Both the position numbers and the translations under genes were made by a program. Below the pieces are notes generated by a model. It made no database searches. It was not told the origin of the DNA and worked only from the letters and a program-made list of their open reading frames with translations. DNA of 43,803 nt from a phage. Numbering within the stretch: the first letter of the stretch is position 1; each line of letters begins with the position of its first letter. Of this stretch, positions 17,224 to 38,664 are shown in pieces. The stretch lies in the NCBI GenBank assembly GCA_018167155.1, contig GCA_018167155.1_4332.1. The stretch is one strand, 5' to 3'.

Positions 17224-17253
17224 GAAAAGGCCCCGTTTGGGGCCTTAGTTTTA
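17224..17253. terminator. Bidirectional terminator between convergent operons
   Basis: AAAAGGCCCC-GTTT-GGGGCCTT followed by TAGTTTTA; flanked by T/A runs in both orientations. Confidence 0.65.
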
Positions 17254-24183: not shown

Positions 24184-26456
24184 TCACTTAAAGCCTGGTG
24201 CGTTTCTTGTAGCCTTCCTAGCTTTCGATATTTTGCTGTTACTATTCTGCAGCGAAGCAGCAACTTGTTCCTCTATGATGATACGCAAACGGCCTTCTTC
24301 GTCCTGTTCAACGCTGGTGTTGCCAATTTGTGCGCTGGTGTTATTTATAATGCTGATATTGGCCGGCCCGGTACCGCCGCCGTTCTGCCCCATAATTTCC
24401 TTCATCTGCTGTGCTGTGCGTACACGAGACGCGCCAGCTGGCATGATAACTTCTGGTTTACCACGTTCGGCGATAGTAGAAGCCTGCCCCGCAGATAACT
24501 GACCGCCTTGTTCACGGGCGGACCTGATAGCGGAAATCTGCGCCATACCAGCCCCAACGGCAGCAGCAGCGGCTACAGGTGCCAGGAACGGACCAACAAC
24601 AGGGATAGCGGCCGTTGACTTATACGCTTCAATAGCTGCGGTGTACGTGGCGATAGTGGCCTGTACGATAGCGAATGCCTTATACGCGCCAGAAGCCTCG
24701 CCCAACGCGGACCCGATATTTGAGGCCATGTTACCAAAGGCCGTTGCCGTTGCCTCAGCACGCTTGGTGGCGTATTGCTCGTTGATGGCGTTAAGTGCCG
24801 CTTGATACTGTTCCTCTTTAATCAGACCCTGCTCGCGGTACTTATCAGCTACCGCCAGTTTCTGCTGTTCCTGGATATCGAGAAGCTCAAGCTCCGTGGC
24901 ATTCTGGCCCATAATTTGAGCCATGAAGTCGTCGCCTTTCTGCTGCTTTTCCTGGGCTTCTTTCTGACGTTTATCCAGTTCATCTTGCCGTTTTTGCCCT
25001 GCTTCAAGGACAATAGCCGTTTTTGCTTGCTCGTATTCTTTCAGAGACAACGCGCCCTGGCTGTAAAACTCTTTTGCTTTAGCCAGTTTCTGCTGTTCCT
25101 GGGCGTCAATAGCCTTTAACTCGTCGTTGTTCTGACGGGCCAAAGTGTCGAGGTAATCTTGCGCCTGATTGCGCAATTGCTCCGCCTTCTTAGCGGCGGC
25201 TTTTGCCGCTTTATCGTCGGCGTTTCCGGTGCCGCCAGTTCCGCCCTTTTTATTAACAAGGCTGGCTAAGTCAATTTCTTGCTTCTTGCGCTCGTCATAC
25301 TGCTTGCGCTGTTCCTCAATTTCTTTCTTACGCTGCTTAGACCTGTCGGTAATGGCCTGGGATTCCGCCGCTGCGCGTTTTATGCTGGCGGCGTATGCGG
25401 CGTCAGCCTCTGCGGTCAGGTTTTTAAATGTGAGCGCTGCCGTTTTGCTCGGGTCAAACACATCAGCAAGGGTCTGACCTAACGCTACAGCGTAATCGTC
25501 AATGCGCTGGAACCACGCAATAACCTCGTGGAACGTCTGCTGAATGTCAGGCAACCACTCACGGATAGCATCAGGTATAGCCCCCAGCGAGTCTGACATA
25601 TCAACGGATTTGTCCTCGGTGTCGTATGCCAGGTCATTCAGGGCATCAGAAATAAACTTGAACGATTCATTGAACAGTGTCACCCAATCCTGGAGCGTGG
25701 CTGCTATCTCATTAGACGCTATGGCGTCGGTGAGTGCCGCGATAGCATCTTCCGCTCTCGCGGCTTGCTCACCTACGGCGTCACCAAAACCGGATTGCGC
25801 TACCGCAAGAACAAGACCATCGAAGGAGTCGGCGAGGCTCGACAACTGGCCATCTAAGGTCTTCGAACGCGTCTCCATAGCTCCGGCGAAATCAGTGTTG
25901 CCGATGTTTAGCAGGTATTTCTGAATCTCTTCGGAGTTCTTCTTAACGGTAGTCGTTACGCCGCGGAACGTGAACGAAACGGTATCTGCCTGTTGGGAAG
26001 ACTTAATGCCGAACTCTTTCAGCCGCTCAAACTCAAAGGTACTGGCGTCAGCCACAGCCTCAATCATCTGATTAAGGTCTTTACCCATAGCCGCCGCGGT
26101 GTTGCCGTAGGAGATTAACGCCTCTTTGCTGGGATTCAGGCCGAGGGCTACAAGTTTAGTGAAACCCTCTACCGCCTGATTGAGGCCATACGGGGTTTCT
26201 TTTGCGAACTGTTGCAGGACGCTGAAAGCCTTAGCCGCGTTCTCGGCGCTTCCGGTCATTGTGATGAGGCCGGAATTCAGCTTATCGAAGTTGCGCTGAG
26301 AGTCCACCAGCGCACTGAACACCTGTTTGGCGGTTTCCAGACTGACAATGGCAGCCGCGGCAGCACCTGCGGCTTTGGTAAGCCCGTTCAGTTGTGATGT
26401 GGTTTTATCGACGCCGGTCGAAGATACTCGTACTATCAAGCTAGCGGTATCAGCCA
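24184..26456 (-). CDS. Tail tape measure protein
   Basis: ORF track 24184..26472; about 757 aa, Ala/Gln/Glu-rich helical low-complexity sequence, follows the G/T chaperone pair. Confidence 0.85.
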
Positions 26457-26782
26457 TGATTTCTACCTTCAAAGATTGCTTCTAAGCCCATGATAATGTC
26501 TATCTCGAACAGGCTAAGCTGTTTTTGCGTAACATCGAGATAGGCTTTCAGGTCTTGCCACGTAACGGATTCTCTTGCAAACAATACTACAGCGTCCTCG
26601 CGCACGTGTCGCGTAAACTTAATGTCGCAATACGTCTCAAAGGTGGATATAAAAAGGGGCGGGCATTCTGGCCCACCCCGTCGCGCTGCACGTTTTTTCT
26701 TATCGATTACACCCATCGCGATAAGCGCCTGTTCGTGCCCGTCAGCTATAGAATCAAACTCTCTGATTTTATGCTTATCCAC
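26450..26782 (-). CDS. Tail assembly chaperone, gpT-like frameshift extension
   Basis: 110 aa ORF in the -1 frame relative to the upstream G-like gene; that frame stays open upstream across the G stop. Confidence 0.5.
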   Translation of the reverse strand: MDKHKIREFDSIADGHEQALIAMGVIDKKKRAARRGGPECPPLFISTFETYCDIKFTRHVREDAVVLFARESVTWQDLKAYLDVTQKQLSLFEIDIIMGLEAIFEGRNHG

Positions 26783-26814
26783 AAACTCGTAGGTGGCGAA
26801 CCTGTACAGCGCGT

Positions 26815-27231
26815 CTACTTTTCCTGTAATGCTTTGCGCTCAGCGTTATGGAACGCAGCTACCTGTGTGCCTAATGCCTTGAACTGGTCGAGCAACTTGT
26901 TAAACGCTTCCTTAGAGAAGGGCTCATCAAAGCTCCAGCCGTTTACAACTTCTGCTGCAAGTTGCCGGTTGAGGTCTTCCGCCAGTTCGTTAACCGCCAG
27001 GTTATATTCAGTATAGTCGCCGGTTTCTTTGGCGGCTTTTTCCAGTTCTTCAAAACGCGCCAGTCCGCGACGGTACGCGATAATGAAAGCACGCCCCGCT
27101 TTAACGGCGACATCCGCATCCGGGCTTACAACATTAAGCCATTCCCCCGAGTCTTCACCATTCGGCAGGAGAATCGGCATCTTCTTGCCTACCAGCGCTT
27201 TCTCTTCGAAATAAAAATCAGAAAGTTTCAT
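26815..27231 (-). CDS. Tail assembly chaperone (gpG-like)
   Basis: 138 aa acidic protein just upstream of the tape measure gene; candidate slippery site GGAAAAG before its stop. Confidence 0.6.
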   Translation of the reverse strand: MKLSDFYFEEKALVGKKMPILLPNGEDSGEWLNVVSPDADVAVKAGRAFIIAYRRGLARFEELEKAAKETGDYTEYNLAVNELAEDLNRQLAAEVVNGWSFDEPFSKEAFNKLLDQFKALGTQVAAFHNAERKALQEK

Positions 27232-27338
27232 TCTTTAATCCTTTGGTTAAGAGGTTACAGGTTAAGGAAAATGCGCCAGACGGGAACCACCCGCTTTTCG
27301 TGTGCGACACTAGGCGCAAAATTATTCTATCACATTAC

Positions 27339-27367: not shown

Positions 27368-27396
27368 TCACTTACACCAACAATGAGGGGTTTAAA

Positions 27397-27588
27397 ATGT
27401 CAAGTTTACCAGTTTCCTTAATCCTGTTTGCACTTCTCGCCTATTTCGCACCTTTCCTGGTTGCATATTTCCGTAACCATAAAGCGAAGTTGGCGATATT
27501 CATGGCCAACCTGTTTCTCTGTTGGGTTCTGCTGCCGTGGGTATTTATTTTAATCTGGGCGTGCAACTCGAATGTTAACGAGAAGTGA
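27397..27588 (+). CDS. Superinfection immunity (Imm-like) small membrane protein
   Basis: 63 aa; YFAPFLVAYFRNHKAKLAIFMANLFLCWVLLPWVFILIWA matches the Imm_superinfect pattern as I recall it. Track ORF 26962..27588 is a longer frame; the ATG at 27397 follows SD GAGGGG. Confidence 0.55.
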   Translation: MSSLPVSLILFALLAYFAPFLVAYFRNHKAKLAIFMANLFLCWVLLPWVFILIWACNSNVNEK

Positions 27589-27626
27589 GCTAGTATAGGA
27601 CAAATCCTAAACACGAGGAAGTAAGC

Positions 27627-28757
27627 ATGGCCCGTAAGAAAATAACCGACGAACAGTTACAGGAAGAATTGAACGCCGGAATGAAGAATATCGATATAGC
27701 CCGTAAATACGGCATCTCAGACCGCGTTATTCGTATCCGTAAAGCGAAGCTGGCAAAGAAAGGCGTAGGCCACGGCCGCGACGTCAGCCACCTTGTACCG
27801 GACGGCTACAAGATTAAAGGCACGTCGTCACTGGTGGACGAGTTCGGCAACACTAAGCTGCAATGGGTTAAAACCGACACTGACGCCGAACGTCAGGTCG
27901 AGTTGATGAAAGCCGTAATCGAAGGCATGAAGTCAGAGATTACGCCGGTTGCGCCTGTTAAAGCTGCACGCGTCAAACGCGACGATAAACTACTCAATCT
28001 TTACACTGTATCTGATTTCCATCTCGGTATGCTGGCCTGGGCCGACGAGAGCGGCGACGACTGGGATATGAAAATCGCGGAAGACCTGTTCTCTCGTTGG
28101 TTCGACGCGGCGTTTCAGAAAGCGCCAGATGCAGGAACAGGGGTTATTAACCTGCTGGGCGACTTCGCGCACTTCGATAGTCTGGATGCCGTTACCCCCG
28201 AGTCGCGTCATGTGTTGGACGCAGACACTCGCTACCAGAAACTGGTGCGCTACATGATTCGTATGGTGCGCCGTGTTGTTGATATGGCGCTGGTTAAGCA
28301 TAAAAATGTCCGCTTGCTCATCGTGCAAGGGAACCACGACGAGAGCGGAATGATTTGGTTGGCTGAGATGTTTAGCACTCTGTACGACAACGAGCCGCGT
28401 GTGTTCGTCGATACGTCGCCGGATGTGTACAAGATGGTGCAACACGGCAAAACGACATTGTTCTTTACCCACGGACATAAAGCGCGCTTCGACGCTATCG
28501 AACCGGTTATGATTGCCAAGTTCCGCAAAGCGTTTGGTGAGAGCGTTTACAGCTACGCCCACGTAGGACACCTACACCATCAGAAGATTGTAGAAAGCCG
28601 TAATATGATTGTTGAGCAACACCGCACCTTAGCGGCTAAAGACGCCTACGCCTCCCGCGGCGGATGGATGTCAAGCCGCAGTGCAAACGTAATTACTTAT
28701 AGCGCCGAATATGGCGAGGTTGCACGTTTAACTATTTCACCGGAGATGCTGGGATGA
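27627..28757 (+). CDS. Calcineurin-like metallophosphoesterase with N-terminal HTH-like domain
   Basis: 376 aa; ordered motifs SDFHLG (DxH), GDFAHFD (GD), QGNHDE (GNH[DE]), THGH, GHLHH (GHxH); N-terminal KNIDIARKYGISDRVIRIRK looks like an HTH. Confidence 0.65.
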   Translation: MARKKITDEQLQEELNAGMKNIDIARKYGISDRVIRIRKAKLAKKGVGHGRDVSHLVPDGYKIKGTSSLVDEFGNTKLQWVKTDTDAERQVELMKAVIEGMKSEITPVAPVKAARVKRDDKLLNLYTVSDFHLGMLAWADESGDDWDMKIAEDLFSRWFDAAFQKAPDAGTGVINLLGDFAHFDSLDAVTPESRHVLDADTRYQKLVRYMIRMVRRVVDMALVKHKNVRLLIVQGNHDESGMIWLAEMFSTLYDNEPRVFVDTSPDVYKMVQHGKTTLFFTHGHKARFDAIEPVMIAKFRKAFGESVYSYAHVGHLHHQKIVESRNMIVEQHRTLAAKDAYASRGGWMSSRSANVITYSAEYGEVARLTISPEMLG

Positions 28758-28984
28758 CTTCAAAATACAACCGAACAATGACAAACACTCACGGCAGCAC
28801 TATGACCGTAGACGTTTACGATGTTCTCCGTGCATTCGACATCCGTGACCCCGCACTACAGCACGCATTGAAGAAACTATTGTGTATGGGTCTTCGCGGG
28901 CACAAGGACACCGGAACCGACTTAGCGGAAGCAATTGAAAGTCTGGAGAAGTTACGAGAGTACCGTAGTAATATAGATGAGTAA
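28754..28984 (+). CDS. Hypothetical protein
   Basis: 76 aa, ATGA-coupled to the phosphoesterase gene. Confidence 0.45.
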   Translation: MTSKYNRTMTNTHGSTMTVDVYDVLRAFDIRDPALQHALKKLLCMGLRGHKDTGTDLAEAIESLEKLREYRSNIDE

Positions 28985-28991
28985 GAATGTA

Positions 28992-29150
28992 ATGAAAACA
29001 ATATACGTAATCCGCGTATATGACGAAGAATGGGATGAGTGGGTTGGTATTTATGCTGTTGGTAGTAAGGAAGAGGCCTCGAAAGAAATGACAGAACGTA
29101 GTAACCGAGGTCAGTTAACTAACTTCTATGAAATGCCATTCAAAAGTGAG
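28992..29150 (+). CDS. Hypothetical small protein (hand-called, 52 aa)
   Basis: Reads MKTIYVIRVYDEEWDEWVGIYAVGSKEEASKEMTERSNRGQLTNFYEMPFKSE; ends 5 nt before the terminator. Confidence 0.3.
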
Positions 29151-29154
29151 TGAG

Positions 29155-29183
29155 AAAAGGCCCCGTTAGGGGCCTTAGTTTTA
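29155..29183. terminator. Bidirectional terminator (strong on minus strand after the tail tube gene)
   Basis: AAAAGGCCCC-GTTA-GGGGCCTT-AGTTTTA, a near-identical copy of the element at 17224. Confidence 0.7.
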
Positions 29184-30353
29184 GGCGTAACTAATACGCT
29201 GGATGACAATAGATGACTGGTACTGGTTGCCTGTGGACTGCCCTTCTATACTTTGAGTAATTGATTCCGGACCAGATATTTCTGGTGTAACAGCCGTAAG
29301 TTCGGCGCGTTTCAAACTGAAAGACATAGCCCCGTTTACCCCAGCCAGAATAGAGTTAATCTCTACCTGCTGTTCGTTGATAAACTTCTGAATCATAGCC
29401 ATATCGTACAGCTTACCGGAGATGGAGAAGGTGTTAGCTGCGCGGCTACGTTCCACAAACGCAACGTTAGAGTTGCCGAGTTCGAACTGTGCGGACGCGC
29501 TGTTGTCGTTGGTGATGGTAAGGCTATCGCAACGCAACGGGGTAGAACCGTCGAACACAGAAACGTCGACCGAGGAGAACGGCTCATCACCAAACGTAAC
29601 GGAAGAGAAGTCAGAACCAGACGGCGCCGCGGTGAGAATCTCCTGGCTGCGACCGATGAACGGGAAGCTGCCCGTTACCATCGCGTTAACGGCCTGCTCA
29701 ACGGTAAAACCAGAAACTTCCACGCCTTTGGTTAACGTGTACGCGTCAGTCCCGCCGCACTGGCCTTTGTACCAGGTGAGGATAGAGAACGTCTTACACG
29801 CGTTACCAGTTTCCAGTTTGTCGCCGGTCTTAGCCGCAGTAGTGGCAGTCTCTGTGGTGAGGGTGTGCTGAATGCCCGCACCGGTAACTACCAGTGCCTC
29901 TACCGAGGTAACGATAAACGGTTTTGCGTTGTCGCCCGTCAAGTCGGTAAACGCAATCAGGTCACCCACTTCAACGCCGTCAGTAATGAAGCTGCCATCA
30001 GCACGAGTGAACGTCTTGCCCGCCGGTGCGACGGTAATCGATAGACTGGACAGGGAAACACCGGATTGCCACGTAGAGCCTAAAGCACCCGCCAGCCAGT
30101 CGTCCTGGCTTTTCGAGCTAAGCTCGATCGCGTATTCACCGCTAACCTGTTTGTTACCGGTGCGGATGGATGTAGTCTCACGGCTGCCGTCCAGTTCGTT
30201 GGATGTCAGCGTGTCTCGGGTAATAGCAGGAACGCCACCTGTGTTACGCAACGGCGACCATACCGGGTTAGTCGGTGTTACGCCCGGGGTGACTTCCGCC
30301 ACATAGAATTGCGCGGTAGTCGCGCCCTTAAAAGGAGTTGTAGCCATATTCAC
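29181..30353 (-). CDS. Major tail (tube) protein
   Basis: 390 aa Thr/Ser/Gly-rich protein upstream of the chaperone and tape measure genes, followed by a strong terminator. Confidence 0.65.
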   Translation of the reverse strand: MNMATTPFKGATTAQFYVAEVTPGVTPTNPVWSPLRNTGGVPAITRDTLTSNELDGSRETTSIRTGNKQVSGEYAIELSSKSQDDWLAGALGSTWQSGVSLSSLSITVAPAGKTFTRADGSFITDGVEVGDLIAFTDLTGDNAKPFIVTSVEALVVTGAGIQHTLTTETATTAAKTGDKLETGNACKTFSILTWYKGQCGGTDAYTLTKGVEVSGFTVEQAVNAMVTGSFPFIGRSQEILTAAPSGSDFSSVTFGDEPFSSVDVSVFDGSTPLRCDSLTITNDNSASAQFELGNSNVAFVERSRAANTFSISGKLYDMAMIQKFINEQQVEINSILAGVNGAMSFSLKRAELTAVTPEISGPESITQSIEGQSTGNQYQSSIVIQRISYA

Positions 30354-36538: not shown

Positions 36539-36564
36539 TAAGGCCCCATAACGGGGCCTTTTAT
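36539..36564. terminator. Terminator hairpin between convergent genes
   Basis: AGGCCCC-ATAAC-GGGGCCT followed by TTTTAT; identical stem to the element at 38641. Confidence 0.65.
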
Positions 36565-38329: not shown

Positions 38330-38651
38330 GAACCACTTGAAGGTCTACGGGCCTTATGGCTTGCATTCATGGAACGGTGGGTATGACGTAAACGATGACC
38401 TGCCGATACGTAAAATAGCACGCGCGGCGCGACGCAATGTAAAGCCGGGTGACGTGCTAGTCATACGAGATAATAATGTCATTGTTGAGGTTGAGAAAGT
38501 TCATGGCATGTTTCTCACAGTAATACCTGTTGATGTTGCTTTGCGTGACGCAAGGCCCTACCGAGAAGCTGGGGGTGGTAAAACTGGTAAATACACATAC
38601 GGCAGGATTGAGATACATAAAACACATCTTGATAAAGTTAAGGCCCCATAA
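38307..38651 (+). CDS. Hypothetical protein
   Basis: ORF track 38286..38651; internal ATG at 38307 after GGAGTGGTGG; 114 aa basic protein. Confidence 0.5.
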   Translation: MSLRNNLKNHLKVYGPYGLHSWNGGYDVNDDLPIRKIARAARRNVKPGDVLVIRDNNVIVEVEKVHGMFLTVIPVDVALRDARPYREAGGGKTGKYTYGRIEIHKTHLDKVKAP

Positions 38652-38664
38652 CGGGGCCTTTTTC
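38641..38664. terminator. Rho-independent terminator between the plus cassette and the portal gene
   Basis: AGGCCCC-ATAAC-GGGGCCT followed by TTTTTCTTT. Confidence 0.7.

Follow-up and report, generated by a model that had tools for sequence, protein, structure and literature searches.

The tail gene region of a phage contig of 43,803 nucleotides (NCBI GenBank assembly GCA_018167155.1, contig GCA_018167155.1_4332.1; the whole stretch is called the window below) contains two overlapping open reading frames (ORFs) that resemble the G and T tail assembly chaperones of long-tailed phages, both on the minus strand, as are all features given below unless stated otherwise. By its sequence the window is a Kagunavirus (K1G-like; Guernseyvirinae), and the 1.1 kb around the G/T locus was 95-97% identical to K1G-like Escherichia phages and matched 117 phage records. 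The G-like ORF (26815..27231) starts with an ATG at 27231, encodes 138 amino acids and terminates at a TAG at 26817-26815, so that its end at 26815, as stated in an earlier annotation of the locus (the original prediction), could be read directly. A Shine-Dalgarno (SD) sequence AAGGA (27239..27243) is located 7 nt ahead of the ATG and the block AACCAAAGGA around it was kept in relatives; the exact 138-amino-acid protein is present in public databases. The 3' end of G reads GCA TTA CAG GAA AAG TAG, corresponding to a protein end ALQEK. The first T codon, GTA, begins with the base at 26818 and is completed by the T and A of the TAG stop, which puts T in the -1 frame relative to G. This T extension (26450..26818) comprises 122 codons (VDALYRFATYEF...EGRNHG) followed by a TGA at 26452-26450. 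Upstream, the -1 frame is closed by a TGA at 26840..26842, which restricts the overlap with G to 8 codons; the open stretch begins at 26839 and extends to the terminal TGA (26452-26450). The original prediction was thus right in placing T in a -1 frame that is open across the G stop, while the opening point it gave (about 26838) was one base off. The whole recoded gene would occupy 26450..27231 and the predicted GT fusion is 260 amino acids long, with the junction ...ALQEK|VDALYRF... and, to take Glu-C as an example, the junction-spanning peptide KVDALYRFATYE. We infer from these and the following comparisons that a programmed -1 frameshift at a stop-adjacent A_AAG very probably occurs in vivo and yields both G and GT from one start, at a frequency that would fix the G:GT ratio that tail assembly needs.

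Both parts of the predicted fusion belong to known families of tail assembly chaperones. G matched Pfam PF08748 (Phage_TAC_4) with 27.0 bits against a gathering cut-off of 21.1 and the T frame matched PF23812 (Phage_TAC_18) with 67.5 bits against a gathering cut-off of 27. In the PHROG collection the single profile phrog_15027 ('tail assembly chaperone', 259 positions) covered both, with G aligned to positions 1-138 and the -1 frame to positions 135-259. Given that one profile spans G and T, fused G-T proteins of this family are already present in public phage protein sets. A sequence search of solved structures gave only a chance-level match (7uek, E = 0.006, 33 residues).

To compare the junction between relatives, 32 IMG/VR loci were fetched with the G protein and 80 loci were collected with an alignment of T sequences, and the annotated records of K1G, Bas74, SE2 and Shashou were added. 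The 80 loci contained 66 distinct 90-nt contexts, in which the identity of G to that of the window ranged from 99% down to about 49%. In the window the slip site G_GAA_AAG is located at 26818..26824 with the TAG directly 3', and its conserved core A_AAG at 26821-26818. The last two sense codons of G were NNA_AAG in all 66 distinct contexts, the codon preceding AAG being GAA in 51, GCA in 12 and GGA, TCA and AAA in one each. The original prediction had described GGAAAAG immediately before the G stop as a slippery heptamer; the position is correct, but the term overstates the site, of which only A_AAG is conserved. The stop abutted AAG in 65 of the 66 contexts (46 TAG and 19 TAA) and was found one codon later in the remaining one, which reads AAG TTA TAG. 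Beyond the junction the -1 frame ran for 120-122 codons in every locus. In three contexts the upstream -1 overlap amounted to only 2-3 codons, and a shift in those loci is therefore possible only on the last two sense codons. Hence a slippery sequence is found within the overlap and is kept among the relatives, though not one of the canonical form X_XXY_YYZ.

The motif is not rare in itself. A_AAG occurred in frame 33 times in the roughly 12,000 codons of the window, and in-frame G_GAA_AAG was seen several more times. This frequency corresponds to a chance of about 2% of finding one A_AAG within an 8-codon overlap, and the motif alone is therefore weak evidence, but judged from the aligned contexts the positional conservation of NNA_AAG raises the site far above chance. 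Two side observations concern the use of such sites. Among the lysine codons of the phage about 43% are AAG, and about 20% of third codon positions are A; in a rough set of 52 likely genes the in-frame AAG codons were preceded by A in 33 of 301 cases, which is below the approximately 20% expected from the third-position composition. This scarcity suggests that the shift-prone A_AAG is avoided outside the G stop. Variant sites were also seen: among the related contexts the only canonical heptamers are the lambda site G_GGA_AAG of one close relative (L013/L053) and A_AAA_AAG, which precedes the stop in one distant relative, and among remote G homologues a Serratia phage has CGA_AAG inside a 118-nt overlap and a Vibrio phage T_TTT_TTC, both well upstream of the stop. 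Given that the remote homologues use other sites, the stop-adjacent A_AAG is a trait of the Guernseyvirinae.

In the mechanism that we propose, ribosomes would initiate at the ATG at 27231 and most of them would stop at the TAG at 26817-26815, giving the 138-amino-acid chaperone G. A small fraction would slip one base back on the A_AAG at 26821-26818, with tRNA-Lys moving from AAG to AAA and re-pairing perfectly, after which GTA would be the next codon and 122 codons would be read in the -1 frame, giving a 260-amino-acid GT that ends over the start of the tape measure gene. The Lys-tRNA slip from AAG to AAA was already part of the original prediction and agrees with the presence of A_AAG in every context. 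In E. coli one tRNA-Lys reads both AAA and AAG, and for E. coli-type systems A_AAG or NNA_AAG is an established -1 site, as in IS1222 (G_CGA_AAG), Bacillus subtilis cdd (A_CGA_AAG) and IS3 (A_AAG) (PMC5009743, PMC6815119). Since the P-site tRNA cannot re-pair at -1 where GCA or TCA precedes AAG, only the lysine slip is common to all lineages, and the comparison of the contexts indicates that the conserved core is probably a single tRNA-Lys slip on A_AAG rather than a canonical heptamer. The adjacent stop suggests a further contribution, in that a slow termination that leaves peptidyl-tRNA-Lys waiting in the P site may aid the slip (a 'shifty stop').

The same contexts bear on a tandem slippage of two tRNAs on G_GAA_AAG (Glu from GAA to GGA and Lys from AAG to AAA), as on the lambda site G_GGA_AAG, in which the stop would play no part. 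GAA precedes AAG in the window and in 51 of the 66 contexts, the glutamate tRNA would keep two Watson-Crick pairs around a central G.U, and the two variants with G_GGA_AAG and A_AAA_AAG would suit such a slippage; in addition, efficiency varies with the two bases that precede A_AAG (PMC5009743). When re-pairing of both tRNAs was considered for the site of the window, however, the move from GAA to GGA left the central G.U and only A_AAG re-paired perfectly. Moreover, the 13 contexts with GCA or TCA cannot re-pair in the P site and their T frame is equally conserved, so that tandem re-pairing is not what selection keeps family-wide. We therefore regard tandem slippage as possible but rather unlikely to be the general mechanism, although it may add efficiency in the GAA lineages.

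A minority messenger in which G and T are in frame could also arise by transcriptional slippage, if RNA polymerase gained or lost an A within the run of As at the site. Such a run is present (AAAA in the window), but it is just 4 As long here and 3 As in the lineages with GCA_AAG, and productive slippage of bacterial polymerases requires much longer runs. The G that follows the As is conserved, which fits re-pairing of tRNA-Lys and not polymerase slippage, and we give this explanation almost no credence.

The predicted fusion also depends on how T is started. An independent functional start for the T-like ORF, which the original prediction had named, along with absence of a fusion product, as speaking against it, was looked for among the related loci, and neither a conserved T-frame start codon nor an SD sequence at any candidate T start was found: in the 80 loci the first ATG, GTG or TTG ranged from codon 3 to codon 108, with none before codon 108 in two lineages. 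The second ORF thus lies in the -1 frame, overlaps the first and lacks a start and an SD of its own, which is the arrangement expected of a G/GT pair. If T nevertheless were a separate protein with no fusion, it would have to start from the GTG at 26782 or from a CTG or TTG six bases after the G stop. The automatic ORF list does give a 110-amino-acid ORF from that GTG (26780..26782), and the records of Bas74, SE2 and Shashou annotate a 119-amino-acid T from Leu codon 3 (CTG in Bas74, TTG in SE2 and Shashou). Neither codon is preceded by an SD, however; close as well as distant relatives have GTT, GTC or GTA in place of the GTG, and the codon-3 candidate of the window is CTG, a non-canonical start. 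The T-frame residues V1, A3, L4, A8, F21, D22, I24 and H28 were invariant in nine diverged representatives, and the variation at conserved T-frame residues fell mostly on third codon positions; as V1, A3, L4 and A8 lie upstream of every candidate start, the frame is conserved as protein before any separate T could begin. A separate T is for these reasons highly improbable.

The close junction of the two frames would also suit termination followed by reinitiation, in which ribosomes end G at the TAG and a part of them initiate again close by in the -1 frame, so that no fusion is made, since the G stop directly adjoins the conserved beginning of the T-frame protein. An AUG, GUG or UUG at or near the stop is absent in most lineages, though, the first T codons being GTA, GAC and GCG, and both the PHROG family and deposited proteins treat G and T as a single chain. 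In lambda, moreover, it is through the fused G part that T is held on the tape measure protein (PMC5009743). Reinitiation is thus scarcely credible here, and a frameshift from G into T is the reading with which we proceed.

Several observations nevertheless weigh against a programmed frameshift at this site. The sequence G_GAA_AAG departs from the canonical X_XXY_YYZ heptamer, and the stop may lie next to the site because a dual-coding overlap is avoided and not because it has a mechanistic role. In an RNAalifold analysis of 10 diverged junctions the consensus downstream had an energy of only -0.7 kcal/mol, with 3 invariant pairs and no covariation, and an upstream block resembling an SD-like stimulator was not conserved. 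Given that no stimulator was found, the efficiency of the shift may be low. A literature search found no experimental demonstration of GT for Kagunavirus, K1G or Jerseyvirus, and the genome announcement of the Kagunavirus Shashou states that there is 'no canonical slippery sequence' (PMC6776780).

Other candidates for a stimulator were examined and rejected. Folds of 26817-26720 and 26850-26760 as a downstream stimulatory RNA were no better than those of shuffled sequences (z = -0.88 and +0.97, respectively), and none of the Rfam frameshift elements matched at E <= 10. Stimulated bacterial -1 sites of the dnaX and IS3/IS911/IS1222 type are recognized by a stem-loop or pseudoknot 5-8 nt downstream and/or an SD-like element 10-14 nt upstream, and the site in the window does not conform to this type. 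A possible 3' nucleotide element, GCGCTGT at 5-11 nt past the slip site, was invariant in the first 33 sequences, synonymous positions included, but was downgraded to weak when the wider set showed GCGTTGT, ACGCTGT and GCCCTGC; it is best explained by a conserved Ala-Leu-Tyr/Cys together with preferred codons. A hairpin inside T, described below, is about 139 nt from the slip site and too far away to act as a frameshift stimulator.

As an annotation, the G/GT frameshift at this locus is already known. The K1G entries GU196277 and RefSeq NC_027993 annotate G as ORF22A and a two-piece joined coding sequence as ORF22B, and a K1G fusion built at the same junction was residue-for-residue identical to ADA82267.1 / YP_009168804.1 (260 amino acids) as well as to two 'putative tail assembly chaperone' entries of other Kagunaviruses. 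The 260-amino-acid fusion of the window itself was not in the protein collection that was searched. K1G, the Kagunavirus type species, has the same gene pair with about 96% DNA identity and an identical slip site and context, and the G part of the window differs from that of K1G at two amino acids (T70S, V79I). Annotation practice is uneven, with the joined coding sequence in K1G as against a separate 119-amino-acid T in Bas74, SE2 and Shashou. The published announcements differ as well: a slippery sequence is reported to be present in a Jerseyvirus (PMC6763656), and Shashou, for which a canonical one was denied, carries the identical CAG GAA AAG TAG site. As the site is A_AAG and lacks the canonical form, it can escape predictors that look for heptamers as well as manual checks, as with Shashou.

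Frameshifting between G and GT is conserved among long-tailed phages (PMC5009743), and the original prediction that the locus follows this mechanism is supported by the chaperone families, the adjacency to the tape measure gene, the conserved site and T frame and the joined coding sequence of K1G. A close known system is gpG/gpGT of lambda (Levin 1993 and Xu 2004, 2013 and 2014, summarized in PMC5009743), which the locus resembles in having overlapping ORFs immediately before the tape measure gene, the second in the -1 frame without a start of its own, and in the predicted move of tRNA-Lys from AAG to AAA, by which one start serves both a short and a long chaperone with no obvious RNA structure needed. 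By analogy with lambda, the G parts would coat the tape measure protein and the T part of the rare GT would recruit the tail tube protein; we take these chaperone roles of G and GT as probable on the strength of that analogy. The proteins of the window, in contrast, have no detectable similarity to lambda G and T and belong to other Pfam families (TAC_4 and TAC_18). The locus also differs from lambda (G_GGA_AAG) in its P-site codon, GAA, which makes the heptamer non-canonical, in a slip site formed by the last sense codon directly ahead of the stop, and in the position of the tube gene, which is non-adjacent and separated by a 2-kb module on the opposite strand. The sites of IS1222, cdd and IS3 are similar in the single tRNA-Lys slip on A_AAG, where the P-site codon need not re-pair, but they depend for stimulation on a pseudoknot downstream or an SD-like element upstream, neither of which is conserved at the site of the window, where a stop codon abuts the slip site. 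A slip site directly abutting the stop of the short product is also found in KL1, where a tail chaperone frameshift is likewise predicted; KL1, however, has a canonical X_XXY_YYZ heptamer and its sequence is unrelated.

The tail genes surrounding the locus are ordered on the minus strand as tail tube gene, a 2-kb opposite-strand module, G, T and tape measure gene. The tape measure gene (24184-26457/26472; PF20155 / phrog_1538) is directly downstream of G/T, and its ATG at 26457 overlaps the T stop (26452-26450) as ATGGCTGA (26457-26450). The K1G tape measure protein is annotated from the ATG equivalent to 26457. The automatic ORF list starts the gene at a TTG at 26472, and relatives annotate the ATG at 26457 with a GAAGG-type SD upstream. 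The tail tube gene (29181-30353; PF18906) is the next same-strand gene upstream of G, from which it is separated by the module on the plus strand (27380-29153) encoding a superinfection-immunity-like small membrane protein, a 376-amino-acid metallophosphatase/'DNA repair exonuclease' and two small ORFs. The two ORFs are thus placed between the tube and the tape measure genes, as described for G/GT (Xu, Hendrix & Duda 2004), despite the intervening module. This layout, with the module between tube gene and G, is common to K1G, Bas74, SE2 and Shashou.

Two further elements at the locus might act on its expression. The first is an intrinsic-terminator-like element inside T (26646..26679), with a stem GGGGUGGGC / GCCCGCCCC (26679-26656) followed by UUUUUAUAUC (26655-26646). 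Its stem of 9 bp contains 8 G-C pairs and encloses a loop of 6 nt, with the 3' tract TTTTTATATC. The element follows the slip site at a distance of about 139 nt and precedes the tape measure start by about 190 nt. By number of G-C pairs it was the strongest terminator-like site in the window, and no other strong one falls within a coding region, the rest being intergenic (17227-17246, 33569-33548, 35960-35941, 36540-36560 and 38640-38660). Three of these (17227-17246, 36540-36560 and 38640-38660) are copies of a near-identical bidirectional terminator hairpin, AAGGCCCC(N4-5)GGGGCCTT, located at intergenic strand-switch points.

The inner four pairs of the T hairpin are dictated by the conserved protein motif G-P-E-C-P. 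In several, though not in all, of the related lineages the outer stem varied and still paired, with a U-run after each stem (GAGAGGGGC/GCCCCUCUC, AAAGGGGC/GCCCCUUU and AAUUAAGGGGC/GCCCCUUAAUU). Among 25 distinct sequences, changes on both sides of the stem were found in 28 cells compared to 14.9 +/- 3.2 in shuffles, and none of 500 shuffles reached 28. Of the stem cells 26% were unpaired, because SE2-type lineages and lineages lacking the GPECP motif are without the extension. The 13 codons under the hairpin were unusually rare, as only 0.65% of 11,757 scored codon windows were as low, and when RRGGPECPPLFIS was synonymously recoded 3,000 times with the codon usage of the phage only 0.9% of the variants were as stable and 0.13% also retained the T-run. 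The rare codons together with the recoding test argue for selection on the hairpin at the nucleotide level (RNA or DNA). Since the stretch of the hairpin is translated by frameshifted ribosomes only, the hairpin could normally form, and we put forward as a hypothesis from sequence that it serves as a partial terminator and is coupled to frameshifting.

The second element is a structured leader directly upstream of G (27256..27320) with a full-length match to the int-alpA family (Rfam RF02996). The score of 33.5 bits is below the gathering cut-off of 35.8 bits for this family, and the corresponding E-value was 7e-5 when 1.1 kb was searched and 0.003 with the entire window, in which the match occurs as a single copy. 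RF02996-like matches (27.8-33.5 bits among relatives) also occupied this place ahead of G in five diverged relatives. An alifold consensus of 10 leaders showed an outer stem and two hairpins, with 4 covarying pairs and compensatory changes in three helices. In its full-length architecture, its linkers and its covarying pairs the leader thus resembles the int-alpA family while scoring under the threshold. Its conservation far exceeds that of the G protein next to it; two Jerseyvirus-type loci are without the leader. Just upstream of the leader an extended -10-like sequence, TGATAGAAT (27332-27324), was read by eye.

These findings have a direct consequence for annotation, in that a 260-amino-acid GT fusion should be called here in place of the free-standing T ORFs of 110 or 119 amino acids with their GTG, CTG and TTG starts, as found in many related records. 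The survey also resolves a small inconsistency in the literature, as Guernseyvirinae do have a slip site, in the form of an A_AAG tetranucleotide at the stop. For the G/GT mechanism itself the locus is one more case of a conserved phenomenon, and what is added is modest, namely a family-wide definition of the site as A_AAG plus stop, with no stimulator. Of the features described, only the T hairpin and the int-alpA-like leader could open a new line; they bear on how the stoichiometry of the tail assembly proteins is set jointly by transcription and recoding. The recoding site might be part of a larger device, in which a stop-adjacent, stimulator-free slip of a single tRNA on A_AAG, a strong terminator in T (26679-26646) and the conserved leader at the 5' end of the transcript (27320-27256) are coupled to transcription of the tape measure gene; this is speculation, and we consider it improbable on present evidence. 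If true, the terminator would end most transcripts after G and thereby give a high ratio of G to tape measure protein, and a frameshifted ribosome trailing the polymerase could disrupt the hairpin and favour read-through into the tape measure gene, a coupling resembling attenuation.

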